Source: an uncultured Actinomycetes bacterium (GTDB lineage: Bacteria > Actinomycetota > Thermoleophilia > RBG-16-64-13). Taken from it: a DNA stretch of 28,278 nucleotides. The notes under the pieces were generated by a model. The model was not told the origin of the DNA. It did no database searches and saw nothing but the letters and a program-made list of their open reading frames with translations. The stretch lies in the NCBI GenBank assembly GCA_963706025.1, contig CAVPLM010000015.1, forward strand, positions 1 to 28,278. The letters run 5' to 3'. The position numbers and the translations under genes were made by a program. Below, one piece after another: positions 894 through 22,754 of the stretch; within the stretch, counting starts at the first letter, position 1, and each line of letters opens with the position of its first letter.

Positions 894-900
894 TGCCGGC

Positions 901-5045: not shown

Positions 5046-8000
5046 CTAGGTCTCCCTCACCGGCTGTTTCGCCCTGTCCTCGCGGGCCCACCAGCGTAGG
5101 AACCCCTTGCTGTCCAGATAAGCCTCGCAGCGGGTCATGGCCCCGGCGTCGTTGGTGTGCTCGTCGAACTGCAGGACCAAGAAGGGGTCGGGTGAAGCCG
5201 GGCCGATGTAGTGCTTGATGTACGAGTCGGGTCCGCACTTGAAGTTGGTCAGGTAGATGATGTGCAGATTGGGATGCTCCGACACCACCCGGGCCGCCTG
5301 CAGGATCTTGCGCCCGTAGTTCCAGAACATGTTGGGGGTCACCGTCGCGTGTCTCTCTTCCCCACAGAGGCAGGAAATCGATCGGGATGAGGTTGACCCC
5401 GTAGTAGCGGCGGAGCTTGGCCGGGATGTCCATGTTCACCCCGGAGTCGTAGATGTTGTAGGGGCGGCCCACCAGGACGATCCCCAGCTCGCCGTCCTCT
5501 TCCAGGGTGGCCAGGGCGTCGGCGCCGGCCGCCATCAGGCGCCCGCGGAACTCGGCCTGGGCTTCGTAGGCCTCGTTCAGGGCCTCGTCGACCACGCGCG
5601 CCGGCACGGAGAAGGCCCTCATCGCCACGCGGAGCGATTGCCGCATGTATTCCGGGCCGCGGCGGAAGTGCAGGGTAGGCGCGAAGAACCGGTCGCTGTA
5701 GGCGTCGAAGTGCGGGGCCAGCCGGATCACGTGGGGGAGAGTCTGACCCCAGGGGCAGGCGTGAGACTCGATCTCCGGGTGGTCGGTCTCTTCGTTCAGG
5801 TGGTTGGGGATGAAGACGTAGTCCGCCCCTTCCTCGAGGAGTTCGGCCACGTGCCCGTGGGCCACGCGGATGGGGAAGCAGGGTTCGGCCACGGACCCCT
5901 CGATGCCCATCTCCCGGATCTTCTTGTCGGTCTCGCGGGAGAGCATGATGTCGAACCCGCAGGCCTTGAAGAAGGTCGCCCAGAAGGGAAGCCGGTCGTA
6001 CGTGTACATGGCCCGGGGGATGCCCATGGTGCCCCGAGGAGCGTCGGTACCGCTGCGAAGCAGGGTGGAGGTGTCTTCGGCCTCGGTCACGTAGGAGTAG
6101 AAGAGAGCATCCCGGAACCCGACCAGGTCGCGGATGATCGGCTCCTTGTCGACCTTGGCCCGTTTCCGGTAGCGGTCGGAGCACTTGTCGCCCCAGTAGG
6201 TCTTCTCCTCGCCGATGGTGAACTGGCGGATGTCGCATTCGTTGCTGCAACCCTTGCAGGTGAACTCCCGCATGGTGTAGTCGACCTGCTCCAGGTCCCA
6301 ACCCCGGAAGCGGGAGGGAGTCTGGGTGGCCGACATCTTCTCCCGAGCCAGCAACGCCGCCCCGATGGCGCCCACCACCCCGTTGTACGGGGGCACGATG
6401 ATGTCTTTGTCCAGGATCATGCTGAAAGCGGCTGCCACCGAGTCGTTGTAGGCGGTGCCACCCTGGAAGTAGATGGTGTCGCCGATATGGCGCCGGCCTA
6501 CCAAGCGGTTGAGATAGTTGTAGGCGATAGAGAACGCCAGTCCGGCCACGAGAGCCTTCTTGTCCGCACCGCGCTGGAGGTAGGAGTTGACGTCGCGCTC
6601 CATGAAGACGGTGCAACGCTCGCCCAGACGGACCGGCGCATCCGAAGACAAGGCCAACTCGGCGAACTCGCCGATGATGTTGATCCCCAGTTTCTCGGCC
6701 TGCTCTTCCAGGAAGGAGCCGGTCCCCGCCGCGCAGGCCTCGTTCATGGCGAAATCGACCACCACGCCGTCCTGAAGGCTGATGAACTTGGAGTCCTGCC
6801 CGCCGATCTCGAAGATCGTGTCGGGCACTCGGTCGATGAGCTTGCGCCCGATGGCGGTGGCTCCGGTCTTGTGGGCGGTGATCTCGTCGTTGATGGTGTC
6901 GGCTCCGATAAGCTCGCCGATCAACTCCCGGCCCGAGCCGGTGGTGGCGACCCCGAGGATGTTGAGGCGGGGGCCCATCTCGCTCCAGATATCGGCCAGA
7001 CCCTTGTTCACCACTTCCACCGGGCGACCGTCGGTCTTGACGTAGATCTCCTTGACCACCTCGCCGTCCTCGTCGAGCACCACCAGGTTGGTGGAGACCG
7101 AGCCCACGTCGACCCCCAGGTAGGCGTCGATCTGCCCTTCGGGCGGGAACCGGTAGGGCTTGACCCGGTCGCGGAGGAGGATGACCCGCTCCATGGACAG
7201 GGCGTCGCTGGTCTCGAAACCGGCGGATTGACCCCCCTGCAGCCGGTCCGGGTCGATGGTGACCATCTCGACTCCCGCGCTCTCGTCGGCGGCGGTCAGC
7301 GCGCTGCCTATGGCGCCCATCCAGGCGTAGTAGGCGGGGACGATCAGCTGGTCCTCGGCCATGTCGAAGGCCTCGCGTAGAGCGGCGACGGCCCCCTTGT
7401 TGGCCGCCACCCCGCCGATGAAGGCCACCCGGTCGCCGATATCCTTGCCTTTGGTGATGGTGCCCCGGTAGTTCCGCACCACCGCGTTGCAGAGGCCCTT
7501 CAGCACCTCCGGCGGTTGGTAACCCTTCTGCTGAGCGTGGATCATGTCCGACTTCGCGAAGACCGAGCAGCGACCGGCGATGGACGCCGCTTTGCCCGCT
7601 CCTCTCACGATGTCGCCCACATCCTCGATGTCGTAGAGCAGCCGGCTGGCCTGCTGGTCCATGAAGGAACCGGTGCCCGCCGCGCAGTCGCCGTTGGTGC
7701 CGTAGTCGGCGATACCCACTCTACCGGAGATCTCGTCGGTCTCCAGGCGGATGAACTTGGAGGTCTCACCGCCCATCTCGAAGACCGTGGTCACCTCGGG
7801 GTGTAGCGCTCCCACCGCCCGGGCGATGGCCTTGAACTCGTTCTCGTACGGGATGTCCAGCATCTTCCCGACCAGACGACCCCCGGTGCCGGTCACCCGC
7901 ACGTCGGTGATCAAGCCCTCGGGCAAGACGGCCAACACCTGGCCGAGGAACTCCCGGGCCGTTTCGGTCGGACTACCTTTGATACGCCGGTAGACCGTGG

Positions 8001-8178
8001 CCAGGATGGGCGGAGCGCCCGAATGGGGGAGGGTCATGTCCTCCGTGCCGGTGTGTGACGGATCAAGAAAAAGGGCGGACCCCGAAGCCAGAGCCCGAAA
8101 CGACTCCTGGTCTTCAGGTCCACCCACAACAGCGATCTTCACGCTGATGCAGCCGATATCAATGCCAAGCGTAGCCAT
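5046..8178 (-). CDS. Double BadF/BadG/BcrA/BcrD ATPase activase plus DUF2229-type domain (PlsA/Ger-like), frameshift near 5345
   Basis: Two activase domains (GIDIG..MGGETSK..CAAGTGSF..RCSVF; GVDVGS..IGGQDSK..CAAGTGSF..RCTVF), a CKGCSNEC linker, then CFPIRVAHGH, CP, GRPYN and NFKCGPDS (last in ORF 5046-5342). Confidence 0.88.
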
Positions 8179-8444: not shown

Positions 8445-8564
8445 GAGTTCGTTTCAGAATGACGCTTTGCCGACAGGGTGCGATCGGCGCGAGTGAGGCG
8501 AGGACGATGGATCGCTCCGCCCAGCGCGGACGAGGCGGCCGAGACTTCATTCTGAAACGAGTTC
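8445..8564. mobile_element. Putative 120-bp MITE with IS5-family-like ends
   Basis: 18-bp terminal inverted repeats gagttcgtttcagaatga (8445-8462) and tcattctgaaacgagttc (8547-8564), 16/18 match. Flanked by TAA on both sides (8442-8444, 8565-8567). No transposase inside. Confidence 0.65.
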
Positions 8565-9895
8565 TAAAGGAAGAACACCGCCGTCACCACCGCGAAGATG
8601 GGGACGAGGACGGCCACGGAATAGCCCATGTAACCGAAGAAAGACGGCATCTTCAGGCCGGAGTGATCGGCTATTGCCTTCACCGCCAGGTTGGGGGCGT
8701 TACCGATGTAGGTGTTGGCGCCCATCATGACCGCTCCGCAGGAGATGGCGGCCAGGAACTCCGCCGGGGAGAAGCCCATCCCCGGTACGATCTGGGTGGA
8801 AGTGAGATCTCCTATGGTGGCCGCCCCCATCTGGCCTTGGGCCGTGGCCGTGAAGACCAGGTAGGTGGGAGCATTGTCCAGGAAAGACGACGAGCCTCCG
8901 GTAGCCCAGAAGTAGTGCCAGGGCCGGCTGAGACCGATGGTCTCCCCGTTCGCCTCGAGGAGGGCAAGGGCCGGGATCATGGTCGCGAAGATCCCGGCGA
9001 AGAGTACGGCCACCTCCACGATGGGAGCCCAGCGGAAGTGGTTTGCCGCCCGGGGTCCTCGGGGCCCCAGCCTGACCGAGAGGATGGCGAGGACGATCAA
9101 GACGACCTCACGGACGAAGGGGAAGTGGACGGTCTCACCGATCCGTGCGAGCGCATCGGAGAAGAGGATCGTGATGATGACCAGGGCGAAGAAGAGCAGG
9201 TTGATGGTGCCCTTGATCCTTATGGGCACGTAATCGGCCTCGTCCCATCGCCTGGCCACGGCCGGCTCGCGCCGATATTGGCGGATCTCGATCATCAAGT
9301 AGACCATGAGGGTGAGGCCCAGCGACAAAAGCCATTGGGGCCACAGACTCAGCGTCCAAGCGAACGGAACTCCCCGCAGAAAGCCGAGGAACAAAGGAGG
9401 ATCGCCCAAAGGGGTGAGCATCCCACCGATGTTCGATACCGCGAAGATGAAGAAGACCACCGTGTGCCGGGTGTGGGTCCGCTCGGAATTGGCCCTCAGC
9501 AGAGGGCGGATGAGGAGCATAGAGGCGCCCATCGTGCCGACCAGGCTGGCCAGTAGCCCTCCTATTACAAGGAAGGTGAGGTTGGTACGAGGCGTGGCCA
9601 CCAGGTTCCCGGTGAGGTAGACGCCTCCGGAGATGGTGAAGAGGGCAAGCAGCAGGACGATGAAGGAGATGTATTCCTCGGCTGTGTTCGCCGCCACGTG
9701 CAGGCCGAGGCTGCCGAACCGGGCGAACAGATAGACCACGGTGGGAACGCCGAGGACGGCTGCCACGATCCCCTTGTTGCGGTTCGAGTGGAACCACTTC
9801 TCGGCCACCAAGGGCAGAACGGCGATGGCTATCAGCATGCACGCGAACGGCACGAGCGCCCAGGGACTGAGTTGTTGGCCGAGTTCGATGCTCAT
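8564..9895 (-). CDS. Ion-transporter (IT) superfamily protein, putative Na+/H+ antiporter or carboxylate transporter
   Basis: Intact polytopic membrane ORF with SNIGGMLTPLGDPPLFLGFLRGVPF, SSFLDNAPTY and GANTYIGNAPN. Likely start is the ATG at 9895 (MSIELG). Confidence 0.85.
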   Translation of the reverse strand: MSIELGQQLSPWALVPFACMLIAIAVLPLVAEKWFHSNRNKGIVAAVLGVPTVVYLFARFGSLGLHVAANTAEEYISFIVLLLALFTISGGVYLTGNLVATPRTNLTFLVIGGLLASLVGTMGASMLLIRPLLRANSERTHTRHTVVFFIFAVSNIGGMLTPLGDPPLFLGFLRGVPFAWTLSLWPQWLLSLGLTLMVYLMIEIRQYRREPAVARRWDEADYVPIRIKGTINLLFFALVIITILFSDALARIGETVHFPFVREVVLIVLAILSVRLGPRGPRAANHFRWAPIVEVAVLFAGIFATMIPALALLEANGETIGLSRPWHYFWATGGSSSFLDNAPTYLVFTATAQGQMGAATIGDLTSTQIVPGMGFSPAEFLAAISCGAVMMGANTYIGNAPNLAVKAIADHSGLKMPSFFGYMGYSVAVLVPIFAVVTAVFFL

Positions 9896-9994
9896 GGGAA
9901 TCCAGGGTTCCAGCTTAACACGGCGCCGGTCCATAGCCGCGCGCCGTTACCGCGGATCACCTGGCCCGTACCGATGTCCAATCTGGGTGCCCGA

Positions 9995-10003
9995 TGGTAT
10001 CGT
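9995..10003 (+). promoter_or_regulatory. Possible extended -10 element for the PucR-family gene
   Basis: TGgTATCGT ends 10 nt before the ATG at 10014 and there is no Shine-Dalgarno, suggesting a near-leaderless transcript. Confidence 0.35.
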
Positions 10004-10013
10004 GCGTCTCATC

Positions 10014-11666
10014 ATGCCGGTCACAGTCGCGCAGATACTCGAACTCGACGTGCTCAAAGAAGCGCGCCTGCTGGCCGGCGCGGCCGGACTGGACCGGAGG
10101 GTGAGCTCCGTGACGGTGGGAGAAGTCCCCGACATCGCGGATTGGCTTTCCGGGGGAGAGATGGTCCTCTCCACCATGTACGCGGTCAGGGGCAATCTGG
10201 AGCGCCAACGGGAGTTCTGCCGGCGGGTGATGATGGCGGGTGCCGCCGCCCTGTTCGTCAAGACTACCCGCTTCGTCGAGAGCGTGCCCGCAGACGTCAT
10301 CGCACTGGCCGAGAAGCGCAAGTTCCCCATCATCGAGGTCCCTCAGGGACTGCGCTGGACCCGACTCATGCAGGACGCCGCGGAAGTGATCATCAATCGC
10401 CAGGCTTCGCAGTTGGAGCAGTCGCACGCGATACACCGCAGTCTCCTGGGGGTGGTGATCCGCGGAGGAGGCTGGCAGGAATTGGCCGACGAGGCAGCTC
10501 ACCTCTTGGCGAACCCGGTCGTTATCCTCGACATCTCTCTGGAAGTGTTGGCCGTGTCGGAGGGTCTTCCGCTCGCGACCGCCGACCTCGAGCTGCGACT
10601 AGGGAAGCCGGAGGTGCGTGAACGCTTCAACAGCGCGGCCCGCGAGGACAAGCTCTTCCGCGTCCAGGAAGGGGACCTCCCCACGATGTTCGTGCTACCG
10701 ATCGTGGCCAGTCACAAGCGACTGGGCTACGTGTGCGCTCTTAGTGACGCCCCGGACCTCTCGTCGATGGAGACGTTGGCGCTTGAGCATTCTGCCACCA
10801 TAGCCGCCCTGGGGATGGCTCAGGACAGGGTGCGTTTCGAGACGGAAGTCCGTCTGAAAGGGGATTTCGTCGACGACGTCATCAACGGGGGGGAGCCGGG
10901 TGGTGATTCCCTCCTGCGCCGGGGCGCCTTCCTGGGGTGCGATCTTGGCCAGGGAGCTACGGTCATGCTCCTGGGGGTCGATGAGTTCGACGGGCTCGTC
11001 GCCCGGAAGGGCTTGGACCAGGAGGCACTCGACAAGGCCGTCGAGCGCTTCTTCTCGTTGTGCTCTCGCTTCCTGTCGTCATCCGAGCCGTCTTCGCTCG
11101 TCAGCCTCAAATCGGGACACGTGGTGATCTTCGTATGCGGCAAGACCGCCCACGATACAAACGCTTTGGGGCGTTTGGCCGCGGTGTTGCAGGGTATGGG
11201 TCAGAAGGCAGGAGGACTGAGCATCTCCATCGGCGTGGGGGGGGTCGCTCCTGACTCCGCGCAGATGGGCAGGGGCTACCAGGAAGCGCTTGTGGCTCTC
11301 AAGGTAGGGCGGAAGCTGAACGGTCCCGGAAGCGTGCTTCATTTTCGCGACGTGGGAACGTACCGGCTTCTTTTGGACATATGGGAGAGAGATCCCGATG
11401 AGGTCCGTCATCTGTACGAGGAGACCATCGGACCGGTGGATCGGTACGACCAGGCGAACGGGACCCAACTCACCCAGACCCTGCTTGTGTTCTTCAGGAA
11501 CAACGAGAGCCTCACCAAGACGGCGGCCGAGCTCTACGCTCACCGGCATACCATCCGCTATCGCCTGGAGAAGATCGCTGAGATAAGCGGGCTGAGCGCG
11601 TTCCAGACCGAGCACAAAGAGCGCCTCGGCCTGGGCCTAAAGGCTCGGAGCCTGCTTACCAGCTAA
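10014..11666 (+). CDS. PucR/CdaR-family transcriptional regulator
   Basis: N-terminal PucR ligand domain (LLAGAAGLDRRV..EVPDIADWLSGGEMVLST), central GGDEF-like region, and C-terminal HTH (SLTKTAAELYAHRHTIRYRLEKI). Confidence 0.92.
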   Translation: MPVTVAQILELDVLKEARLLAGAAGLDRRVSSVTVGEVPDIADWLSGGEMVLSTMYAVRGNLERQREFCRRVMMAGAAALFVKTTRFVESVPADVIALAEKRKFPIIEVPQGLRWTRLMQDAAEVIINRQASQLEQSHAIHRSLLGVVIRGGGWQELADEAAHLLANPVVILDISLEVLAVSEGLPLATADLELRLGKPEVRERFNSAAREDKLFRVQEGDLPTMFVLPIVASHKRLGYVCALSDAPDLSSMETLALEHSATIAALGMAQDRVRFETEVRLKGDFVDDVINGGEPGGDSLLRRGAFLGCDLGQGATVMLLGVDEFDGLVARKGLDQEALDKAVERFFSLCSRFLSSSEPSSLVSLKSGHVVIFVCGKTAHDTNALGRLAAVLQGMGQKAGGLSISIGVGGVAPDSAQMGRGYQEALVALKVGRKLNGPGSVLHFRDVGTYRLLLDIWERDPDEVRHLYEETIGPVDRYDQANGTQLTQTLLVFFRNNESLTKTAAELYAHRHTIRYRLEKIAEISGLSAFQTEHKERLGLGLKARSLLTS

Positions 11667-11702: not shown

Positions 11703-12031
11703 CATTCCGGCTCGACGATGGCGGCGGTACCGTAGGCCAGCACCTCGGTCATGTTGTTGCCGAGATCGGTCGCGTCGTACTTGACGGCTATGACGGCATT
11801 GGCGCCCATTTGCTCGGCATGCTGCACCATCCAGGAGAAGGCTTCGGCCCGGGTCTGCTCGCACAACTCGATGTACTCGGGGATCTGGCCTCCGCCCAGG
11901 GTGCGCAGGGAGGCGGTGATCTGGCTGCCGATCCAGCGGGCCCGTACCGTGACTCCGCGTACGACTCCAAGGGTGTGGACCACCCGGTAGCCGGGGATCG
12001 TCAGGCCTGTGGTGGTCAAGCGGTGATCCAT
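11702..12031 (-). CDS. ybjQ: YbjQ / UPF0145 family protein
   Basis: 109 aa with TTTGLTIPGYRV..LGVVRG, GGQIPEY, GANAVIAVKYD and EVLAYGTA. Strong RBS AGAAAGGA. Confidence 0.92.
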   Translation of the reverse strand: MDHRLTTTGLTIPGYRVVHTLGVVRGVTVRARWIGSQITASLRTLGGGQIPEYIELCEQTRAEAFSWMVQHAEQMGANAVIAVKYDATDLGNNMTEVLAYGTAAIVEPE

Positions 12032-12046
12032 GATTTGTCCTTTCTT

Positions 12047-12342
12047 GTGTTGGGACTACGCACCGCTTCCGGCTGCGCGATAGCGTATCGCGACTCCTCC
12101 ACCGGTGCGTAGCCCCAGCACCCGCATGTCGGTCGGAACGGATAGGTGTGACTTTAGCGCTAATCGGAGCTGCATACCGGTTCCGGCTGCGCGATAGCAT
12201 ATCGCGACTCCTCCACCGGCATGCGCGCCCGCAACCGGTGTCTCAGTACCAGATGGCTGAGGGATGGGGCATCGCGACTCCTCCACCGGCACGTAGCCCC
12301 GTCGCTCACTGTGTCGGTCTAAGTCAGGTGTGACTTTAGCGC
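12047..12342. repeat. Tandem imperfect repeat region with nested stem-loops
   Basis: 39-nt core at 12067-12105 and 12181-12219 (38/39), a partial third copy at 12271-12300, and a perfect 17-nt repeat aggtgtgactttagcgc at 12144-12160 and 12326-12342. Confidence 0.9.
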
Positions 12343-12376
12343 GAAAGGCCCCCCGGCGAACGCCGCGGGGCCTTTC
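12343..12376 (-). terminator. Probable intrinsic terminator downstream of glnA
   Basis: gaaaggcccc (12343-12352) pairs with ggggcctttc (12367-12376), with an inner cggc/gccg stem. Confidence 0.6.
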
Positions 12377-12403
12377 TGAGCTTGTGCGCCTGGCTGGAAG
12401 GAC

Positions 12404-12431
12404 CCGCCCGGCGGCGGGGGCCGCCGGGCGG
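12404..12431. terminator. Perfect 12-bp GC hairpin just after the glnA stop
   Basis: ccgcccggcggc-gggg-gccgccgggcgg. No U-tract, so it may stabilise the mRNA rather than terminate it. Confidence 0.5.
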
Positions 12432-12447
12432 ACAGCAGGGTGGCTGT

Positions 12448-13779
12448 CTAGAGGATCGGGAGGTACCGCGATATCTCGTAAGGGTTGATGAGGGTCTTGT
12501 ACTCGTCCCACTCCGCCCATTTGTTGCGGATGAGGTAGTCGCATACGTGGTTGCCCAGGGCCTCACGCACGAAGCTCGACTTCTCGAACTCCTTGATCGC
12601 CTGATAGAGGTCCTCGGGCAGAGAGTCGATGCCGGCAGCGGCGCGCTCCGCCTCGGTCATCTCGTAGATGTTGTTGCTTGCCTCGGGAGGAAGCTCCATC
12701 CCTTTCTCTATGCCGTCCAGGCCGGCGGCCAGCATGGCGGCGAAGGCCAGGTAGGGGTTGCAGGCAGGGTCGGGGTTGCGTAGCTCCACCCGGGTGGCGT
12801 TCTCTTTGCCCGGCTTGTAGAGGGGCACGCGCACCATGGCCGAACGGTTCCGGCGCGACCAGCAGATGTAGACCGGGGCCTCGTAGCCCGGCACCAGCCG
12901 CTTGTAGGAGTTGATCCACTGGTTGGTGACCAGGGCGATCTCCTTGACGTGAGCGAGGAGACCGGCCACGTACGACTTGCCGACCTTCGACAGGTTGTAC
13001 TCGTCGCTCGCGTCGAAGAAGGCGTTGCGATCGCCCTTGAACAACGACTGGTGCACGTGCATCCCCGAGCCGTTCACCCCGAACATGGGCTTGGGCATGA
13101 AGGTGGCGTAAACCCCCTGGGCCTGGGCGATCTCCTTGACCGTGAGGCGGTAGGTCATGACCTGGTCGGCCATGGTCGTCACGTCTTTGAAGCGGAGGTC
13201 GATCTCGTGCTGGGAAGGGGCGACTTCGTGGTGCGAGTACTCCACCTGGATGCCGAGAGCGTGCAGGGCGTTGATGGTGTCGCGCCGCAGATCACTGCCT
13301 GCGTCCAGAGTGGTGAGGTCGAAATAACCGCCCTGGTCGAGCACGTCGGTGCCGAGGCTGTCCCGAAAGTAGAAGAACTCCAGCTCCGGCCCGACGTTCA
13401 TGGTGTAGCCCATGGCTTCGGCCTTGGCCACCACGTTCTTCAGCACGTTGCGGGGATCGCCGTCATAAGGTTCCCCGGAGGGCTGCTTGATGTCGCAGAA
13501 CATGCGGGCGGTGCCGCCGGCACCGGCCCGCCAGGGCAGCACGGCGAAGGTGCTCGGATCGGGCCAGGCCACCATGTCGGACTCCTCGATGCGGGCGAAG
13601 CCCTCGATCGAGGAACCGTCGAAGCCCATGCCCTCTTCGAACGCGCCCTCGAGCTCCGCGGGGGTGACGGCGAAGCTCTTGAGGAAGCCGAGGACATCGG
13701 TGAACCAGAAGCGGATGAACTTGATCTGTTTCTCTTCGACGATGCGGAGGACATCTTCCTTGGTCAGTTTCTCCGCCAT
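12448..13779 (-). CDS. glnA: Glutamine synthetase type I (alpha-like, about 443 aa)
   Basis: FDGSSIEGF, GPELEFF, HHEVAPSQHEI, FMPKPMFGVNGSGMHVHQS, SYKRLVPGYEAP and RVELRNPD. RBS AAAGGAG precedes the ATG at 13779. Confidence 0.97.
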   Translation of the reverse strand: MAEKLTKEDVLRIVEEKQIKFIRFWFTDVLGFLKSFAVTPAELEGAFEEGMGFDGSSIEGFARIEESDMVAWPDPSTFAVLPWRAGAGGTARMFCDIKQPSGEPYDGDPRNVLKNVVAKAEAMGYTMNVGPELEFFYFRDSLGTDVLDQGGYFDLTTLDAGSDLRRDTINALHALGIQVEYSHHEVAPSQHEIDLRFKDVTTMADQVMTYRLTVKEIAQAQGVYATFMPKPMFGVNGSGMHVHQSLFKGDRNAFFDASDEYNLSKVGKSYVAGLLAHVKEIALVTNQWINSYKRLVPGYEAPVYICWSRRNRSAMVRVPLYKPGKENATRVELRNPDPACNPYLAFAAMLAAGLDGIEKGMELPPEASNNIYEMTEAERAAAGIDSLPEDLYQAIKEFEKSSFVREALGNHVCDYLIRNKWAEWDEYKTLINPYEISRYLPIL

Positions 13780-13830
13780 CAACTGCTCCTTTCACAGTAG
13801 GCGCGTGGGTGGACTTCGTGTTTGTGGACG

Positions 13831-14724
13831 CTAGTAGACATACAGCCTGCCATATGGCCTCGAGGTATAGGGATAGATCTTGACGAAAGGCGCCTCCAAG
13901 ATCGGCTCTGGGTCCAGGTTCATCACCCGGGAGTAGTCGGTGACGATGTCCCGCAGGCGCGCTCGGTCGGCCTCGTCCGGCTCGGCGATGCGCACTTCCT
14001 TGCCCAGTTGATGCTCGGCCACCTCGCCTCGGACGTACATCACGCCCGCGTGCATGCCGGTGCCCACGTAGGAGCCCACCACGCGGCCGCCGTCTCCCCC
14101 AGACCCAGCAGCACGATCTCGCCGCCCGCCATGTACTCGCCGAAGAAGTCGCGCGCGCGGCCGCCCACGACGATCACCGGCCGGCTGTCCCCGTAGGCCT
14201 TCATGTGGATGCCCACCCGGTAGCCCACGTTGCCGCGCACGTAGACCGGCCGCCGCGCATGCCGTAGCCGAGCACGTCGCCGGCGTCGCCGTTGACGATG
14301 ACCAGGCCCGGTTCATGGTGTTCGCCATGCCGTCCTGGGCGTTGTCGTTCACCACCAGCGTGGGACCGTCCATGAAGGCGGCCAGGTCGTTGCCCGGGAC
14401 CCCGTTGATGGTCAGGGTCACCCCCGGGAAGGCGAGGCCGGCGCCGATGTAGCGCTGGCCGTTGACGTTGTCGAGGACGACCTCGGTGGCGCCCCGTTCG
14501 ATCTCCTCGCGGATCTGCTCGTTCAGGGTCTTGTAGTAGATGCCCTGGCCGTCGATGCGGGCGCGGCCGCCCTCGCGGGTGGCCGCACCCCGGTCGGTGC
14601 CCGGCTGGCCGGCCGCGATGCGGGCCGGCTCGATGCCGGTGGGGCCTCTGCGGGCGGGGCCGGTGGGCACGTTCCGGACCGTCGCGGAGTCGGGGGCCAC
14701 GGGCCTGTCCTCGTAGGCCGTCAT
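13831..14724 (-). CDS. gltB3: Split glutamate synthase GXGXG-domain subunit (GltB3-like), frameshifted
   Basis: NVNGQRYIG, GVPGNDLAAFMDG, GNVGYRVGIHMK, DFFGEYMAGG and YVGTGMHAG distributed over three frames. Confidence 0.85.
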   Translation of the reverse strand: MTAYEDRPVAPDSATVRNVPTGPARRGPTGIEPARIAAGQPGTDRGAATREGGRARIDGQGIYYKTLNEQIREEIERGATEVVLDNVNGQRYIGAGLAFPGVTLTINGVPGNDLAAFMDGPTLVVNDNAQDGMANTMNRAWSSSTATPATCSATACAAAGLRARQRGLPGGHPHEGLRGQPAGDRRGRPRARLLRRVHGGRRDRAAGSGGDGGRVVGSYVGTGMHAGVMYVRGEVAEHQLGKEVRIAEPDEADRARLRDIVTDYSRVMNLDPEPILEAPFVKIYPYTSRPYGRLYVY

Positions 14725-14736
14725 CGGCGATGCCCC

Positions 14737-16260
14737 TCACAGGCCGGCGGGCTTGACGCCCAGGATGTCGAGGGTGCTCTCGTCCAGGCCCAGGCCGCGG
14801 AGCCGCTCCCGGCTGCCGCGCAGGCTCTCGATGGCGTTGACGCCCAGGGCGCCCAGGATCTCGGCGATCTCGTGGGTCCAGGCGTGCACCAGGTTGACCA
14901 CCTGCTCGGCGCCCCACTCCGGGTCGAGCCGGCGGGTGAGCTCCGGCCGCTGGGTGCAGATGCCCCAGGAGCAGCTGCCGGTGTGGCACTTCTGGCAGAC
15001 GTGGCAGCCCAGGGCTACCAGGGCGGCGGTGCCGATGGCGCAGGCGTCCGCTCCCAGGGCGATGGCCTTGGCCACGTCGGCCGAGCTGCGGATGCCGCCG
15101 GCCGCCACGATCGAGGCCCGGTTGCGGATGCCCTCGTCGCGCAGGCGCTGGTCGACGACGGCGATGGCGATCTCGATGGGGATGCCCACGTGGTCGCGGA
15201 TGATGGTGGGGGCGGCCCCGGTGCCGCCGCGGAAGCCGTCGAGGTAGACGATGTCGGCCCCGGCCCGCACCACCCCCGAGGCGATGGCGGCCACGTTGTG
15301 CACGCCGGCGATCTTGACCGAGACGGGCTTGTAGCCGGTGGCCTCCTTGAGGGCGTAGATGAGCTGGCGCAGGTCCTCGATGGAGTAGATGTCGTGGTGG
15401 GGGGCCGGCGAGAGGGCGTCGGTGCCCTGCGGGATCATGCGGGTGATGGAGACCTCTCGTCGATCTTCTCGCCGGGCAGGTGGCCGCCGATGCCGGGCTT
15501 GGCGCCCTGGCCGATCTTGATCTCGACGGCCGCGCCGGCCTGCAGGTAGCTCGCGTGCACCCCGAAGCGGCCCGAGGCGCACTGCACGATGATGTGGTCC
15601 TGGTAGGGCTCCAGGTCGGCGTGCAGGCCGCCCTCGCCGGTGTTCATGAAGGTGCCCAGCTCGGCTTGGCGGCCATGGCCAAGGAGCGGTGCACGTTGAG
15701 CGAGACCGAGCCGTAGCTCATGCCCCCGAACATGATGGGCGTCTCCAGCTGGAGCTGGCGGTCGAGCTCGGTGAGCAGGCGCAGGCCGCCGCCCGTTGCG
15801 CTCCGCGGCCACCTCGATCAGAGTCGGGCTTGCGGCCCAGGAAGGTGCGCAGCTCCATGGGCTCGCGCAGCGGGTCGATGGAGGGGTTGGTCACCTGGCA
15901 GGCGTCCAGCAGCAGGTGGTCGAAGATGCGCAGGTAGGGCTTGTCGTTGCCCATGCCGGTGAGCAGCACCCCGCCGGTCTCGGCCTGCCTCCAGATGGCC
16001 TTGCGCAGCTCCGGCGACATGCTGTCGGAGTCCTTGTAGGCCAGGGGGTTCTTCTCGATGGTGATGGCTCCGCCGGGCAGAAGGTCACGCAGCGGTGGCA
16101 GGCGGCGCACTTGGCGTGGTCGGGGATGGGTCGCCGTTCGCGCCTCGTCGAAGTGGTAGACGTTCCAGCCGCACTGCTGCACGCAGCGGCCGCACTTGAG
16201 GCAGGCCTCCCGGTCGATGCGCACCCGGAACTCGGAACGGATGAAGGTCGTGAGCGCCAT
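14737..16260 (-). CDS. gltB2: Split glutamate synthase FMN-binding subunit with N-terminal 4Fe-4S ferredoxin domain (GltB2-like), frameshifted
   Basis: [73 protein letters not shown] and [17 protein letters not shown]. Confidence 0.9.
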
Positions 16261-17542
16261 CACACCACCCCGGACACGGCGGCCTGCCGGGCCGCCCGCC
16301 CTGACCGGCGCCCGATGGGCCTGGGCGATGGCCTTCTGCCGGCCCTTCTCGCTGACGCGGGCGACCACCGGCTCGCCCGCCCGGGGCATCCAGCTCTTCT
16401 CGGGCTTGGGGCAGATCTCGCGGATGGCCGACTCCTCGCTGGCCACGTAGACCGATGTCGCCGTCGCGCGCGGCCACCAGCGGGCGCAGCTTGATGCGGT
16501 CGTTGAGGGCCACCATGCCGTCGCCCATGCCCAGCACCACGGCGAAGGGGCCGTTCAGGAGGGCCGGCCCGTAGACCATGCGCAGGGCGGTGTAGAGCCG
16601 GCGCTGCTCTTCGGGCATGAGGTCGATGTCCTTCCAGAAGGGGCTGGCCAAGGCCTTGCAGGCTATCTCCACCGGCAGGCCGTGCCGGCGCAGCATCAGG
16701 TCGAAGAGGTAGGTGACCACCTCGGTGTCGGTCGCAGAGAGCAGCTGTAGCCGAACCTCTCCAGGTAGCGCTGGTTGATGCCGTAGGAGCTGATCTCGCC
16801 GTTGTGCACGATGCTGTAGTCGAGCAGGGAGAAGGGATGGGCCCCGCCCCACCAGCCGGGGGTGTTGGTGGGGAAGCGGCCGTGGCCGGTCCAGGTCCAA
16901 CCCTGGTACTCGTCGAGGCGGTAGAACTCCCCGATCTCCTCGGGGAAGCCCACGCCTTTGAAGGCGCCCATGTTCTTGCCCGAGGAGGCCACGAAGGCGC
17001 CCTCGATGTGGGTGTTGATGTCCATGACCGCGTGCACCACGTAGTCCTCGGCGGTGAGCTGGGTCTCGGGCAGGCGCTCGTCCGCGATGTCCAGGAAGTA
17101 GCGCCAGAGGATGGGCTCGTCCTCGATGCCGCGGATGGGCTTGGTGGGGATGGGCTCGTCCATGACCACGCGAAGTGCTTCTGGAGGTAGTACTCGGTGT
17201 CTTCCTTGGCCACGTCGTCGTTGTAGAGCAGATGGAAGCAGAACAGGTGGGGAAGTCGGGGTAGATGCCGTAGCCGGCGAACCCGCCGCCCAGCCCGTTG
17301 CCGCGGTCGTGCATGGAGGCCATGCTGCGCACGGCCAGCTCGCCGCTCATGCGGGCGCCCGATTCGTCGCACACCCCCATGAGGCCGCAGCCGCCCAGGA
17401 TGCGCTGCTCGGCTTCCTCCCTGTAGCTCGGCCGGGGCGCGAAATGGCGCCCAAGCTCGGACCGGGCCACGGGCGCGGCCGCTCCGATCCGGCCGCTGTT
17501 ATCGCCGTCAAGGTCGCGCGGTCTCATCCCCGGCCCTGTCAT
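16260..17542 (-). CDS. gltB1: Split glutamate synthase class II glutamine amidotransferase subunit (GltB1-like), frameshifted
   Basis: GGCGLMG (Ntn Cys), [44 protein letters not shown] and DRIKLRPL. The ATG at 17542 overlaps the upstream stop (ATGA). Confidence 0.88.
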
Positions 17543-18870
17543 TCCCGGTCCTCTGTCTCTTCGAGGATCGTCCTCAGTTCGTCGAAGCCATTCCCGGGAA
17601 GGGAGGGGAGACCCAGCCTCTCTCGGGCGGTGGACCTGGGCGTGCCCAGCATCCCGGTGTCCGCGAAGGTCTGATAGTTGGAGCGGACGGCTACCGGGAC
17701 TTTGCCCTCTTCCTGGGCCAACCACTTGAGTCGCTGGAACACGTCCGCCATGCCCATGCGGCTGTGGCAGTGCTCGTAACAGGTCAGGCAGTCGGAGCAG
17801 CGCCAGATATCACCGCGCTCGAGGATCCCTTCCAGATCGCCGGCCAGAAGCTCCCCCATGATGGCCGAAGGCAGGAACCGGTCGTCGGAGCGGGCGACAG
17901 GGCAGTCGTCGTCGCAGGCCTTGCAGGCGGCGCAGGTCTGCAGCTCGGTCAGCTCGAAATCGCGGGAGACAGACTCTCGCTGAGCGAGCTTGAGCGGCCA
18001 TTTCTCCAGGAACGGCGCCACGCTCACCCGGTGCATGTCCAGCCCCAGCTCACTCGGATCCATGCCCAAGGCCAGAGCGATCAACTCCGTGATGTAGAAG
18101 ACCGGGACGCCTGCCTCTCCGGCCGCGCGCAGCTGGGTGGCCTGGTTGAGGTCGAACTGTAGGAAACAAGAAGGGCACGAGACCACCAGGGCGTCGGCCC
18201 CTTGGTCGCGGATATCGGAGAGCTTCCGCTCGCACATGTCCAGAGAGGCCTGGCGCTCTCCCACCCGGTCCAGGGCGTTGCCGCAGCAGTCCATCTTGGT
18301 CTCATAGTCGACCACGGTCGCTCCCAAAGCCCGTACCAACTGCTCGAACTTGGTAGGCGCGAGGGGACTATCCCAACGGATGGCGGGGCTGGGACGGAGT
18401 AGGTGACAGCCGTAGTGCACGGCGATCCGCATGCCCCAGAGAGGCTTGACCACGCGCTTGCTCAGGGCGGCCGGTCCCAGGTCTTCGCTCAGCCATTCCA
18501 CCAAGTGCCAGACGTCCGCGTCACCCCTGTACTGGACCCCGCCCGGGGCCAGACGGCGGTTCACGCTCTCATGCAGCCGCCAATCGACCTTGAGGGTGGA
18601 GATCACCGACTTGAAGGTGGAGTAGCATCCGTTGCAGGGGGTGAGCAGGGGATGGCCTTGACGCTCGGCTACGGCCAGATTGCGGGCCGCCGTCAGGTAG
18701 TAGGCCTCCTCGTCCACGGCCTTGACCAAGGTCGTCTCCGGGCAACAGGTGAAACCGTCGGCGTCCACCAGGTCGATCCCCAACTCGCGAACCACCAGGC
18801 GGGTAGCCTTTTCAATGAAAGGGAAGCGGGCAGGGATGGTGCAACCCCAGAACATGGTCATCCGTCTCAT
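17539..18870 (-). CDS. HdrB-like (two CCG domains) protein fused to a C-terminal HdrC-like 2x[4Fe-4S] domain
   Basis: Intact 443-aa ORF: FWGC..CCP..AARNLA..CNGC; HYGCH..CCG..CPSC..QFD; then [12 protein letters not shown] and [14 protein letters not shown]. Confidence 0.9.
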
Positions 18871-18960
18871 AGCGCGCTCACCACCCTGTGTCGCTACCAG
18901 TCAACCCTTGCCGGCCCCGCCTCAACGGGACGCAGGGAGAATAGCAACAGAAGAGCGTGT

Positions 18961-19018
18961 GTGGTCTATCCAGGTGGCCTATCTTTGGCCGGTCTGGATG
19001 TACAGTTGGATAGACCGC
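18961..19018. promoter_or_regulatory. Inverted repeat upstream of the hdrBC-glt-glnA operon
   Basis: gtggtctatcca (18961-18972) and tggatagaccgc (19007-19018), 11/12 complementary. Confidence 0.45.
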
Positions 19019-19037
19019 AGGCCGGCGGCGCCCCCGG

Positions 19038-20036
19038 TCAATCGCGCTCGAACGGTATCCCCAGACTTCGCGGTTGGACCACCCGCATCGAGCGGAGCAC
19101 GCGGGCTACCACCCGCCGGGATGGTTCAGGCAGGGCGGCCAGCACCTTCTCCACCCATTCGGCGTTGCCGATATTCACCAGCAAGAGCGCGAGGATCATG
19201 AGGGGGAAGGGCGCCACCTGCAGGACCTGGGACGGGATGCCCTGCAGGTCCGGTTGGAGCACTACGCTCAGCCACTGCAGGAATCCGAACAGATAGGCAC
19301 CGAGGGCGACGCGGACGGGGCTCCACGCCCCAAAGATGACGATGGCTAGAACGATCCACCCCAGTCCGTCCAGCCCCGAGATCGTCCCCTTCCAGCCGGC
19401 CTTGACACTGAGCGAGAACATGGGACCGGCCAGCCCGACCAGCGCGCCTCCCAGAGCGGTGTAGAAATAGCGGATGACGTTGACCCGGGCCCCGCGGGCG
19501 AAGGCGGCCTCCGGACGCTCTCCCACAGCCCGCAGAACCAGACCGGGCCGAGTGCGGAAGATCCACCAAGAGGCCACGAAGATCAACGCGAAGCTGAAGT
19601 AGGTCATGACGTCGTGCTTGAAGAAGAGCGTGCCCAGGATGGGTATGTTCTCCAGTCCGGGTATGGGCCGGAGCGAAAGCGTGGGGCCCTGTTCGCCCAT
19701 GTAGGGATTGCCCAGGAAGTAGGCCAGATCCCGACAGAAGAGCGTGAGCACGAAGCCCACGGCCACCTGCGATTGACGGAGGGTGATGCTGCCGAAGGCT
19801 ACCACCAGGGCCACCGCGGCCCCGATGACGCATCCGGCCAGGAAGCCGAGCACGAGGCTGTCGGTGGTGAGCGCCACCACGAAGCTGCCCATGGCCGAAA
19901 GGAGTATGGTCCCGTTCACGGAAAGGTTGATGATCCCGGCCCTCTCGGTCAGGGTCTCGCCGATGGCGGCCACCACGATGGGCGCCGCCGTCGCCAGCAC
20001 CCCCGCCAGACCTATGAGCCAGGTGGTGGCGTCCAC
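19038..20036 (-). CDS. Nucleoside/sugar (CUT2-type) ABC transporter permease
   Basis: GETLTERAGIINLSVNG, TRPGLVLRAVGERPEAA, GLGWIVLAIVIFGAWSP; hydrophobic throughout. Confidence 0.92.
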   Translation of the reverse strand: MDATTWLIGLAGVLATAAPIVVAAIGETLTERAGIINLSVNGTILLSAMGSFVVALTTDSLVLGFLAGCVIGAAVALVVAFGSITLRQSQVAVGFVLTLFCRDLAYFLGNPYMGEQGPTLSLRPIPGLENIPILGTLFFKHDVMTYFSFALIFVASWWIFRTRPGLVLRAVGERPEAAFARGARVNVIRYFYTALGGALVGLAGPMFSLSVKAGWKGTISGLDGLGWIVLAIVIFGAWSPVRVALGAYLFGFLQWLSVVLQPDLQGIPSQVLQVAPFPLMILALLLVNIGNAEWVEKVLAALPEPSRRVVARVLRSMRVVQPRSLGIPFERD

Positions 20037-20040: not shown

Positions 20041-21255
20041 CTACCCTGGGCTTCCCGGATTAGGGGTACCCACGCCCAGGCTGGCCGGCAGGTGCACCTC
20101 AGCCGGCTCCAGCAGCGCTTCCCCTCCCGTCGACGCCCCGGGCGGCGCCATCGAGGCGTCGGCGGCCCGCTTGCGGCGCAGGTAGCGCTGCCGCGCCCCC
20201 TCGACCAGGATCACGAAGAGCACCAACGCGCCCTGCAGCACTCCCGCGAGAGTGGAGTCGAGCTTGAGGACGATAGGCAACTGGATGCTGCCTATGTTGA
20301 GGGCGGCGAAGAACAGCGCCACCGGGGCTACCCATATGGCTCGGTACAAGATGAGCATCCCCACCATCAGGCCCAAGAACCCGTAGCCGCTCGAGATCGA
20401 GGGGATGAGACGGTGATAGACGCTCGTCACCTGGATGGCCCCCGCCAGACCGGCCAGCCCGCCGCAGAAGAGGAAGGCCAGCAGACCGTATTGCCAGGTA
20501 GGTACGCCCAGGAGGAAGGCGGCCCGGTTGTTGAGGCCCACCGCCTTCAGGCGCAGACCGAAGTAGGTGCGTTCGAGGAGGATGTAGACGACTATCACCG
20601 CCAGGATACCCAGCCCGAGCGACCACAGGCTGAGGCGCAGGCCGCCCACCGTGGGCAGAGACAGCTGGTCGGGGAAGGGTTCGGTGCCGCTCATCGAGCC
20701 GATCCCGGGTCGCTTCCAGGGTCCGAAGATGAGCCACAGGGTGAGAGCCGTGGCCACGTAGTTGAGCCCCAGGCCCCCGAAGATCTCGTTCACTCCGCCG
20801 AAGGTCTTCAGGATGCCGGCCAGTGCGGCCCACAGGCCTCCGCCGACGACGCCGGCGATCATGGCCAGCACGATGATGAGCGCGGGGGAGAGGGCCGTGT
20901 CCTGCAGCAGGCGCAAGACCCAGGTGGTGAGCACCGCGCCCAGGACGATCTGTCCTTCCACCCCGATGTTCCACAGGCCGGCCGCGAAGGTGATGAGGAC
21001 GCCGGCCGCCGCCAGCAGGAGCGGGACCCAGGCCACCAGGACGTTCGAGAAGCTGCTGAGCGAACCAACAGCCCCCTTGGCGATCTGCACGTAGGCCTCA
21101 AACGGTGGGGCTCCCGCCACCAGGAGGATGAGACTGGTGATCAGGAAAGCCAGTACCAGGGCGCCCAACTGTATGCCCAGATTGATCCAGGTCTGGCGGG
21201 TGAAATGGGCGCGGCCCCGGGCGTCCTGGGGAGAGTCCGGGGCCGTCTCAGCCAT
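20041..21255 (-). CDS. Nucleoside/sugar ABC transporter permease
   Basis: AGLWNIGVEGQ, GVNEI, TYFGLRLKAVGLN and GYGFLGL. Probable ATG at 21255 (MAETAP). It reads in frame with the ATPase in this assembly. Confidence 0.88.
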   Translation of the reverse strand: MAETAPDSPQDARGRAHFTRQTWINLGIQLGALVLAFLITSLILLVAGAPPFEAYVQIAKGAVGSLSSFSNVLVAWVPLLLAAAGVLITFAAGLWNIGVEGQIVLGAVLTTWVLRLLQDTALSPALIIVLAMIAGVVGGGLWAALAGILKTFGGVNEIFGGLGLNYVATALTLWLIFGPWKRPGIGSMSGTEPFPDQLSLPTVGGLRLSLWSLGLGILAVIVVYILLERTYFGLRLKAVGLNNRAAFLLGVPTWQYGLLAFLFCGGLAGLAGAIQVTSVYHRLIPSISSGYGFLGLMVGMLILYRAIWVAPVALFFAALNIGSIQLPIVLKLDSTLAGVLQGALVLFVILVEGARQRYLRRKRAADASMAPPGASTGGEALLEPAEVHLPASLGVGTPNPGSPG

Positions 21256-22754
21256 CCCCGCCCCCGGCGCCGCCTCTCGCCGAACCGCCTTCGAGGCGCC
21301 TCCTCCGATGAGCTGCCCCAGCTCCTGCACCGTCGTGGTAGCCGCGTCGAGCGGCCCCGATACGTTCCCGGCGAAGAACACCAGTATGCGGTCGCTGTAG
21401 CGGAGAAGCTCCTCGAGATCGCTCGACGCGAAGATGATGGCCCCACCTTGGTTGCAGCGGTCTTTGAGCTTGCTCCACAGGTAGATGACCGACTCGATGT
21501 CCAGGCCCCGGGTGGGGTGCTCGAGAAGCATCAACTTGGCCCCGGCTTTGACCAGGGCAAGCAGGGCCCGTTGCTGGTTGCCTCCCGACAGCGACTCGAC
21601 CTTGTTGGCGGGCGTTCCCCGTATGTTGAACTCGGCGATACGCTCCTGGGCCAGGCGGCGGCCCTTCTCACGGTCGATGAACAGACCGGGCTTCGGCTGG
21701 GTGAGCAGGAAATGGTCGGTCAGGCTGAGACCGGGGATCAGGCCCTCTTCCAAGCGGCTGGCCGGAACGTAGGCGACGCCCTTTCTCTTGAAATGACGGT
21801 AGTTCTTGCCGGTGAGATCGACGTTCTCGAACGACAAACGCCCGCCGGTGACCGGCACCAGCCCGGCACACGCCCGCAAGAGCAGGCTTTGGCCGCTGCC
21901 TTCCATTCCCGCGAGCCCTATGGTCTCGCCTGCGCGCACCTCGAGATCGACCCCGTGGATGCGGAGGCGACCGTGCTCGGCTTCCAGCGCGGACAGCCGC
22001 AGCAACGTCTCGCCGGGCGTGCAGGCTACCCGCTCTCCCGGAGAGATCTCGCGCTCGAACATCATGGTCACAAGTCGTTGCACTTCAAACGGGGGCAGCG
22101 CCTCCCCGACGAGGCGGCCCTGTCTGAGCACCGCCACCCTCGTGCACAGGTCCTGGATCTCGTCCAGTTTGTGGGACACGAAGATCACGGTCTTCCCCTG
22201 GGCGGCCAGGCGACGTAAGGTCTCGAAACAGCTCGGCCCTCTGCCGCGCGCTGATCCCGGTGGTAGGCTCGTCGAGGATAAGGACCCCGGCTCCCAACCA
22301 GAGGAGGCGGAGTAGTTCGAGCTGCTGCCGCTCGCCCACGGTCAGGGACGCGACCTCGGCCTTCAGGTCGATCGAGAGTCCGAGCGAACGCGGCCAACTC
22401 CTCGATGGCGGCGGTGGCCTCTGCCCGGCGGGGGACTATCCGGCCGGGCGCGCCGATGAGCAGATTGTCGACCACCCGCATGGGGGGGAAGTCGAGGGGG
22501 TCCTGGTGGAGCATGCCCACGCCGTGCCGGATGGCGTCTGCCGGGGTACGCATCGCCACCCTGTTCCCGTCCAGGAAGATGTGGCCGCTGTCTGCCGGCT
22601 GGAAGCCGGACAGGATCTTCATGAGCGTGCTCTTGCCGGCCCCGTTCTCTCCCAAGATCCCTTGGATCGTGCCGGCAGGCACGGTGAGAGTGATCCCGTC
22701 GTTCGCTTTGACGGGACCGAAGTGCTTGTGGATATCGGTCAGTCGGACTTCCAC
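21248..22754 (-). CDS. Double-domain ABC ATPase (nucleoside transporter), frameshifted
   Basis: GENGAGKSTL, LILDEPT, second domain LSGGNQQR, EHPTRGLD and SSDLEEL. Frame changes at about 22220-22390. Confidence 0.9.

Follow-up and report, generated by a model that had tools for sequence, protein, structure and literature searches.

We analysed a 28,278-nt stretch of DNA (the window), which is the entire contig C15 (CAVPLM010000015.1) of a metagenome-assembled genome (MAG) from an uncultured bacterium of the Actinomycetota, class Thermoleophilia (GCA_963706025.1; 30 contigs, 3.66 Mb, 92% complete, 7.3% contamination). On its reverse strand a gene for a fusion of HdrB-like and HdrC-like heterodisulfide reductase (Hdr) subunits, hdrBC, is followed by the three genes of a split glutamate synthase (GOGAT), gltB1, gltB2 and gltB3, and by glnA (Table 1). 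An earlier, sequence-only reading of the window had described hdrBC as an intact gene with two CCG domains and two [4Fe-4S] motifs, joined to gltB1 by an ATGA overlap and tightly followed by the other genes, and had suggested that its product could be a dedicated electron-input or thiol/disulfide-linked subunit for ammonium assimilation. The hdrBC open reading frame (ORF) is indeed uninterrupted, and both types of Pfam domain were matched. Its TGA (17539-17541) overlaps the gltB1 ATG (17540-17542) as had been claimed, and the same overlap is found in the closest relative, genome G001, in which all five genes are intact and the fusion has 89% protein identity. gltB1 and gltB2 overlap by 1 nt (TGATG), the gap between gltB2 and gltB3 is 12 nt and that between gltB3 and glnA approximately 51 nt. 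Gene order and tight spacing were therefore as described, but gltB1, gltB2 and gltB3 are not intact genes in this contig, being broken by approximately 15 indels that are considered below.

The HdrB-like part of the fusion covers approximately residues 1-291 and the HdrC-like part approximately residues 303-426. Pfam searches detected two CCG domains (E 6e-30) and a dicluster domain (Fer4_8/Fer4_10; Fer4_8 E 6.5e-7), in the order CCG-CCG-Fer4. When the protein was searched against PDB sequences, residues 5-291 matched HdrB (8rvu_b, E 8e-63) and residues 303-392 matched HdrC (9sfi_E, E 4e-11). An AlphaFold2 model (predicted local distance difference test score 83.7, predicted template-modelling score 0.80) was compared with known structures by Foldseek, giving target template-modelling scores (TMt) of 0.90-0.91 for HdrB and 0.52-0.58 for HdrC. 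The CCG domains contain ten cysteines (C10, C42, C43, C79 and C82; C155, C195, C196, C232 and C235) in the motifs CX31CCX35CXXC and CX39CCX35CXXC, which make up the HdrB-type ligand set for two noncubane [4Fe-4S] clusters. The dicluster domain contains the two CX2CX2CX3C motifs expected of HdrC (C313, C316, C319 and C323; C358, C361, C364 and C368). All 18 cluster cysteines were unchanged in 21 of 21 aligned orthologues, at identities down to 42%. No flavin or nucleotide domain was found in the fusion, so electrons would have to enter through the noncubane clusters of the HdrB part or through another protein. Database names for the protein are generic ('heterodisulfide reductase subunit B/C', 'heterodisulfide reductase-related iron-sulfur binding cluster', '4Fe-4S dicluster domain-containing protein', 'hypothetical protein'), and the ESM Atlas holds a cluster of the same architecture, of which the commonest known phylum is Methanobacteriota.

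The downstream genes encode a GOGAT in which a class-II glutamine amidotransferase (GATase II), a ferredoxin domain joined to the flavin mononucleotide (FMN)-binding Glu_synthase domain, and a GXGXG domain are the products of three separate genes. This architecture is complete in the intact orthologues of G001, and the same three domains were seen as fragments in the window: the gltB2 fragments matched Glu_synthase (2.8e-85) and Fer4, and intact gltB2 of G001 matched Glu_synthase at 1.1e-138, plus Fer4. The eight cysteines of the N-terminal 2x[4Fe-4S] domain of GltB2 were invariant in 16 of 16 sequences. The N-terminus of gltB1 (17350-17542, reverse strand) has approximately 60 residues ahead of the class-II amidotransferase cysteine (GGCG); relative to G001, indels here sum to -27 nt, which keeps the frame, and are common to C15 and to a second copy of the region on contig C16 of the MAG. 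These residues may be a variable propeptide, or gltB1 may in fact start later.

The further claim that the window holds no GltD, F420-binding subunit or HdrA was confirmed. The GltD-type Fer4_20 domain was not matched on the window contig, and Pyr_redox_2, found in HdrA-, GltD- and NfnB-type flavoproteins, gave 0 matches there as against 51 in the genome. FrhB_FdhB_C (PF04432), the mark of an F420-dependent GOGAT, had no match in the entire genome (92% complete). The adjoining HdrA gene that characterizes the context of HdrB is absent from the window contig, and the neighbours of hdrBC are glt genes in all loci. A GltD encoded together with the synthase, as in NAD(P)H-dependent GOGAT, was found neither in the window nor in 80 orthologous loci.

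Table 1. Genes and upstream features of the hdrBC-glt-glnA region, in window coordinates
Feature	Position	Strand	Description
Upstream element	18938..18980	-	Conserved AGGCCACCTGGATAGA, then 18 nt downstream TGCTATTCT (extended -10-like); from upstream sequence comparison
hdrBC	17539..18870	-	Intact HdrB-HdrC fusion ORF, 443 aa
hdrBC alternative ATG starts	18861 and 18855	-	
gltB1	16260..17542	-	Class-II glutamine amidotransferase subunit; about 6 one-base indels; intact G001 orthologue matches GATase_2/6/7
gltB2	14737..16260	-	N-terminal 2x[4Fe-4S] ferredoxin domain and FMN glutamate-synthase domain; about 6 indels
gltB3	13831..14724	-	GXGXG subunit; ORF open but partly out of frame
glnA	12448..13779	-	Intact type-I glutamine synthetase; Gln-synt_C 1.3e-130, Gln-synt_N 1.1e-30

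One check on the proposal had been whether homologues of hdrBC are rarely next to glt genes; the opposite was found, every orthologue with downstream sequence adjoining gltB1. A full-length hdrBC orthologue was present in 13 of 30 relatives, and the order hdrBC-gltB1-gltB2-gltB3-glnA was seen in all 13 and in the second copy of the MAG. (The gltB3 rows of this survey are unreliable, its query having been out of frame and containing a stop; later surveys used the correct query.) Among the best 80 genome loci, gltB1 directly followed hdrBC on the same strand in 76, and the other four end no more than 256 bp past hdrBC. Of 80 metagenome loci, 12 had no room after hdrBC; the other 68, which extend at least 500 bp past it, all showed the same arrangement. 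The nearest carriers are Actinomycetota, mostly MAGs of Thermoleophilia or 'Gaiellales', and more distant ones are Coriobacteriia. In a group at 44-46% identity (L134-L140; genomes G233, G155, G115, G220, G128, G207 and G397) hdrBC-gltB1-gltB2-gltB3 was retained in seven of seven loci, with glnA upstream (glnA-hdrBC-gltB1-gltB2-gltB3) and not downstream of gltB3. No exception to the adjacency was met among loci with downstream sequence. On this comparison of gene orders, hdrBC heads a conserved putative operon for nitrogen assimilation, hdrBC-gltB1-gltB2-gltB3 (plus glnA).

The distribution of the fusion was then set against that of split GOGATs in 401 genomes sampled evenly from the phylum, taking rows at E ≤2.5e-170 as split-type GltB2. 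The fusion occurred in 17 genomes and split-type GltB2 in 81, and the 17 best GltB2 matches were exactly the 17 fusion carriers. hdrBC and gltB2 lay within approximately 3 kb of each other in 16 of these; in the 17th, hdrBC is at a contig end. The sample includes 12 genomes flagged as unpublished (G047, G171, G260, G247, G410, G114, G338, G356, G197, G363, G076 and G144); these belong neither to the 17 carriers nor to the 81 split-type rows and contributed no loci. We compared the fusion loci with 18 split-GOGAT loci without the fusion, hand-picked across families from 64 candidates and so not a random sample. In 14 of the 18, a Fer4_11 protein and a Pyr_redox_2/Rubredoxin_C flavoprotein were encoded, placed either ahead of gltB1 or in the interval from gltB2 to gltB3; a GltD-like gene was present in one, and three had neither input module. 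Neither the Fer4_11/flavoprotein pair nor a GltD-like gene was found in the flanks of any of 80 fusion loci. The fusion and the other input genes are thus mutually exclusive, and, judged from gene content, the fusion stands in the reductant-input slot of split GOGAT operons.

In a tree of GltB2 the fusion-associated rows need a single label change. The 31 fusion rows together with one GltD-type row (L116) had a Shimodaira-Hasegawa-like approximate likelihood ratio test support of 99, and the branch splitting off L116 had 40. GltB2 proteins from fusion loci and from other split-GOGAT loci are 57-67% identical.

The fusion might merely share a promoter with the glt genes and take part in an unrelated thiol reaction. 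We regard this as the least probable of the alternatives considered here and most unlikely, because Thermoleophilia-like and Coriobacteriia lineages alike keep the adjacency without exception, even where glnA has moved, the fusion is mutually exclusive with known input modules, and the hdrBC stop overlaps the gltB1 start. It is instead likely that the fusion is a dedicated redox subunit of this GOGAT. In the anaerobic Actinomycetota that carry it, the fusion always precedes gltB1, in place of NAD(P)H input genes, and so an unusual reductant probably feeds the enzyme through it. Invariant adjacency and mutual exclusion with NAD(P)H-flavoprotein/Fer4 or GltD-like genes thus bear out the electron-input part of what the sequence-only reading had proposed; the thiol part can be put forward only tentatively, a thiol/disulfide couple being a possible donor on which we would not yet rely. 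Taken jointly, we lean on balance towards the fusion being a fourth, redox-input subunit of a GltD-less split ('archaeal-type') GOGAT, with a thiol as the leading candidate for the donor.

In the pathway that we propose, the HdrB part, with its two noncubane [4Fe-4S] clusters, would oxidise a thiol or dithiol donor. The HdrC part would relay the electrons through its own two [4Fe-4S] clusters to the 2x[4Fe-4S] ferredoxin domain at the N-terminus of GltB2, from which they would reach the FMN of that subunit. There they would reduce iminoglutarate, the product of 2-oxoglutarate and ammonia set free by GltB1, to glutamate. Oxidative thiol chemistry is favoured because the likeness to HdrB is far above that to quinone- or lactate-linked CCG proteins and because the CCG cysteines are strictly conserved. 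The potential of the 2-oxoglutarate plus NH4+/glutamate couple is approximately -140 mV, and with the energy of glutamine hydrolysis we estimate that of the GOGAT couple at approximately -70 mV. Disulfide couples lie at -140 to -300 mV and menaquinol at approximately -74 mV, so that the former could drive the GOGAT reaction and the latter barely. Such an enzyme would make up a fourth class of GOGAT, after those dependent on NAD(P)H, on ferredoxin and, putatively, on F420, in which HdrBC runs 'backwards' and a low-molecular-weight or protein dithiol is oxidised; we offer this classification as speculative.

A number of observations weigh against a thiol-fed redox subunit, and several of them bear on its rivals. 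The NCBIfam models gave bit scores of 265.1 for HdrB (TIGR03288), 162 for SdhE, 64 for LdhH, 55.6 for TfrB, 43 for GlpC and 29.7 for GlcF. The HdrB score is below the equivalog cut-off of 345.15, and the HdrC model (TIGR03290) gave 46.9 bits against a cut-off of 160; the substrate of the fusion therefore need not be that of Hdr. Since the HdrB model scores highest and yet falls short of its cut-off, the product classes by these profiles as Hdr-derived, outside the filed members of HdrB and HdrC. The match to SdhE, the anchor of methylmenaquinol:fumarate reductase, is also significant (E 2e-47), GlpC and GlcF match weakly, and these CCG proteins use quinones or other substrates. The fusion might accordingly couple GOGAT to the menaquinone pool at the membrane, as SdhE, GlpC and GlcF do. 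We consider this improbable, as the likeness to HdrB is much higher (265 versus 162 bits, and a TMt of 0.90 to HdrB structures) and as menaquinol, at nearly the same potential as the GOGAT couple, would leave little driving force. No membrane element turned up either, though no search was aimed at one.

A second set of points concerns proteins encoded elsewhere. The sequence-only reading had asked that gltD and hdrA be looked for in the rest of the genome; GltD-like and HdrA-like proteins were found outside the window contig. There are six GltD-type Fer4_20 modules, each of them part of a different, multidomain protein (fusions of NuoF type and HdrA type). Contig C3 has an hdrC-hdrB pair of its own, and the 938-aa open frame behind this pair matches Pyr_redox_2. 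Also on C3 (302899-305424, reverse strand; genome G000), we observed an 842-aa open frame with an HdrA-like N-terminus, an inserted GltD-type Fer4_20 and Pyr_redox_2 module; the tail of this frame looks frameshifted. 'Type III HdrA' with such an insertion is described in PMC12054007 as rare (nine sequences), in methane-metabolising archaea. Flavoproteins of these kinds could serve the GOGAT in trans. In favour of the fusion as input subunit, on the other hand, no other large GltB was found in the genome, the sole further Glu_synthase match being weak (57.6 bits) and belonging to a 564-aa FMN-protein homologue on contig C5. Furthermore, as three of the 18 comparison loci have no neighbouring input gene, GltB2 may take free ferredoxin directly.

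The C3 genes, the three loci without an input gene and the same synteny would also suit a subunit that acts as a relay only, its CCG clusters having no thiol chemistry and wiring GltB2 to ferredoxin or to an HdrA/MvhD-type partner encoded elsewhere. We judge this unlikely. All ten CCG cysteines, which bind the active-site clusters of HdrB, are invariant to 42% identity, and this is hard to square with a mere wire because GltB2 has a ferredoxin domain of its own; moreover, the window has no HdrA-type gene, and none of the tested input genes occurs in the 80 loci. A complex prediction for the fusion with GltB2 (the C16 copy) scored 0.08 and 0.12 against a mark of 0.32; it gave no verdict and was used neither way.

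Further points against a thiol-fed subunit are that the operon contains no gene for a thiol carrier, and that the only DsrC/TusE-family protein of the genome, considered as a candidate carrier, has one C-terminal cysteine and hence no dithiol. A Rosetta-stone search, which provides weak evidence, found no HdrBC-GltB fusion protein, the sole longer protein (778 aa) covering 20% of the query. The locus sets of relatives, genomes and metagenomes overlap in part and their members are kin, so the counts of adjacent loci given above are not independent. Finally, gltB1-3 of the window itself carry approximately 15 frame-breaking indels and an excess of nonsynonymous changes.

A candidate for regenerating a thiol donor was also considered and rejected. 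The window contains a 276-aa ORF for a ferredoxin:thioredoxin reductase catalytic chain (FeThRed_B, E 6.5e-21; 26043-26873, reverse strand), approximately 7 kb upstream of hdrBC. A homologue lies approximately 6 kb upstream in only four related loci and is absent from the 7-kb flank of G001.

The frame breaks were mapped by comparison with G001 and with the second copy of the region on C16. The indels whose length is not a multiple of three (non-3n) and that are specific to C15 lie between 14094 and 17256: approximately six in gltB1 (17256, 17172, 16733, 16453, 16311 and 16300), six in gltB2 (16140, 16077, 15823, 15798, 15668 and 15456) and three or four in gltB3. The last include 1-nt deletions at 14310, 14248 and 14094, which sum to 3 and hence leave the ORF open, with approximately 72 internal residues garbled and a GXGXG score of 43.5 bits compared with 110.5 in G001. 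gltB1 spans three frames with at least five frame switches, and its single frames have no Pfam match; none of the three proteins is encoded in an uninterrupted frame in the window. No C15-specific non-3n indels were found in hdrBC and glnA, the 2.7 kb flanking gltB1-3, and glnA had no indels relative to G001 or C16.

The clustering of all 15 indels within gltB1-3 speaks for these genes being true pseudogenes in this strain, a possibility that concerns this contig only. So do the 50 C15-specific nonsynonymous changes over gltB1-3, compared with six on C16. Moreover, the large contig C3 has intact rpoB and rpoC genes, which shows that assembly quality is not low throughout. However, the C15-specific changes are still mostly synonymous (78 against 50; C16 has 77 synonymous changes). 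The MAG, besides its 7.3% contamination, contains two or three co-binned variants of the region (on C16, C17 and C11, at 90-98% identity), and non-3n indels specific to one lineage are not confined to gltB1-3: in 6 kb at 21.1-27.2 kb there are 36 in C15, 27 in C17 and 15 in C16. The C16 copy has a frameshift of its own in hdrBC, and split frames in these genes were also seen in several other MAGs. In short-read contigs from three studies (four runs), the base that restores the frame is present at every site covered out of 14094, 14248, 14310, 17171, 17255, 15666, 15796 and 15822. We therefore find decay of the genes in this strain rather unlikely, and the glt frame breaks are probably, from these comparisons, assembly errors in a strain-variant MAG contig. 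A GC3-based fragment-length measure of frameshift load per contig was too noisy and was dropped. Gene calls on these small variant contigs are unreliable; for example, an ABC ATPase and a permease are read as a single 715-aa ORF at 20041-22188. One further ORF of the window joins a C-terminal piece of MMPL to a ZIP transporter and is probably another frame artefact.

Upstream of hdrBC, the AGGCCACCTGGATAGA/TGCTATTCT element is common to the closest Thermoleophilia-like relatives and is possibly an operator plus an extended -10 box. A scan of 12000-19300 found no promoter-like sites by the sigma-70 consensus, and two terminator-like sites compared with 2.6 expected from shuffled sequences. Rfam models gave nothing at gathering score in the window, and there were no RNA data sets among the 20 data-set holders of 13800-18900, with all shares ≤0.17. 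The upstream comparison showed no ANTAR-type leader motif in the region preceding hdrBC in the window itself.

The Coriobacteriia loci are organised differently in that an extended -10-like box (TGnTAnnnT) upstream of hdrBC is followed by a leader of approximately 100 nt. In L048-L104 (e.g. L063 and L074) GTTTC-n6-GTTTC repeats were observed upstream of a TGCTAnAnT box; we take these boxes to resemble the reverse complement of actinobacterial GlnR-type half-sites. The leader, found in L047-L104 at approximately 60-180 nt upstream of hdrBC (e.g. L048:6876-6989 and L094:6877-6990), contains two hexaloop hairpins, P1 and P2, and a terminator overlapping the second. Across 41 leaders pairing reached 96% in P1 and 98% in the terminator stem, with four covarying pairs in either, and none of 500 shuffles reached the covariation score. 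G was at position 4 of both loops in 41 of 41, and position 1 was A in 29 and G in 12 for P1 and A in 39 for P2. The ANTAR dual-hexaloop signature, as given in the portion of PMC8934654 consulted, consists of A at position 1, G at position 4 and a second hairpin overlapping the terminator stem. The Coriobacteriia leaders conform to this pattern in their predicted structure, a statement confined to these relatives. Rfam searches of nine Coriobacteriia loci returned only tRNAs at gathering score and nothing at the leader. A PdtaS-like kinase and a REC-ANTAR regulator, the latter being the only ANTAR match in each genome, are encoded 1-6 kb upstream on the same strand in five of five genomes, and the hdrBC operon may be a defined target of a PdtaS/PdtaR-type system. 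The leader precedes hdrBC and does not lie between hdrBC and gltB1, which makes hdrBC part of the regulated unit.

The leader also bears on the direction of the reaction. Hdr normally reduces disulfides, and the synthase sites of GltS can oxidise glutamate with artificial acceptors; the complex might thus run in reverse, glutamate oxidation serving the reduction of a disulfide, or its Hdr part might be a sensor of thiol redox state that gates GOGAT. This we hold to be very unlikely. The operon retains the glutaminase subunit gltB1 and glnA, and the leader of the relatives is of a type known, in the sections of PMC8934654 consulted, from nitrogen and ethanolamine regulons, both of which argue for assimilation.

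Other genes in the window include one for a CoA-enzyme activase with BcrAD_BadFG and DUF2229 domains (1162 aa; 4690-8178, reverse strand). The genes at 8564-9934 (reverse strand), 9741-11666 (forward strand) and 15-1163 (reverse strand) are a CitMHS_2 transporter, a PucR-family regulator and the MMPL-ZIP ORF mentioned above.

Ammonium enters biomass mainly through GOGAT, for which NAD(P)H and ferredoxin are known donors and F420 has been proposed; a conserved flavin-free HdrBC in their place suggests that there is a further class of donor. If the donor were indeed a thiol, ammonium assimilation in anaerobic Actinomycetota would be tied directly to the cellular thiol/disulfide pool. Bacterial Hdr-like proteins, the substrates of which are mostly obscure, would gain a defined partner enzyme with an easy assay (glutamine plus 2-oxoglutarate to two glutamate). 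Uncultured Thermoleophilia-like and Coriobacteriia lineages of the subsurface and of sediments are widely found to have the operon, and so it bears on their redox and nitrogen balance. A full-text search of mostly open-access literature, supplements excluded, found nothing that joins an HdrB/HdrC protein to glutamate synthase genes.

The fusion belongs to the same domain families (CCG and 4Fe-4S dicluster) as HdrD, GlpC, GlcF, SdhE and LutA. HdrD, GlpC and GlcF have an N-terminal dicluster domain followed by CCG, and the fusion is not of this type: Fer4 comes before CCG in HdrD, the opposite of the order found here, and matched profile positions likewise place Fer4 first in GlpC and GlcF and last in the fusion, which the GlpC and GlcF profiles match only in parts. 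The soluble HdrB and HdrC of HdrABC-MvhAGD (PDB 5odc, 8rvu, 7bkb and 9sfi) are closer, sharing both CCG domains, both CX2CX2CX3C motifs and the fold. The fusion differs from them in being one polypeptide, B then C, in scoring below the equivalog cut-offs, and in having glt neighbours and no adjacent HdrA. Methanogens usually have separate hdrC and hdrB genes, and to our knowledge coenzyme M and coenzyme B (CoM/CoB) are not expected in an actinobacterial host.

A mechanistic analogy, and only that, is offered by TfrAB of Methanothermobacter, in which an HdrB-like CCG module passes thiol electrons to a flavoenzyme that reduces a carbon substrate. The NCBIfam model for TfrB (NF004898), named as the CoM/CoB fumarate reductase subunit, matches residues 3-265 of the fusion (E 3.5e-15). 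The acceptor is fumarate reductase in one case and GOGAT in the other, and the CCG part of TfrB is C-terminal to an SdhB-like part, unlike that of the fusion.

For the split GOGATs of methanogens and anaerobic methanotrophic archaea (ANME), an FrhB-like 'subunit 4' (FGltS) has been proposed, which the authors, in the parts of PMC3087415 and PMC9012536 consulted, call unproven. As far as those parts describe it, the putative F420-dependent FGltS resembles the present system in that its split GOGAT cluster includes one more redox subunit, other than GltD, which determines the donor; the extra subunit is FrhB-like there (F420/flavin adenine dinucleotide), whereas here it is flavin-free and HdrBC-like. 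The split GOGAT operons with an NAD(P)H flavoprotein or a GltD-like gene have GltB1 (GATase II), GltB2 and GltB3 (GXGXG) in common with the operon described here, in which the HdrBC fusion upstream of gltB1 replaces the Fer4_11 and Pyr_redox_2/Rubredoxin_C pair or the GltD-like gene. What is new, as judged from the genes, is a split GOGAT of a known kind with what is probably a new input module.

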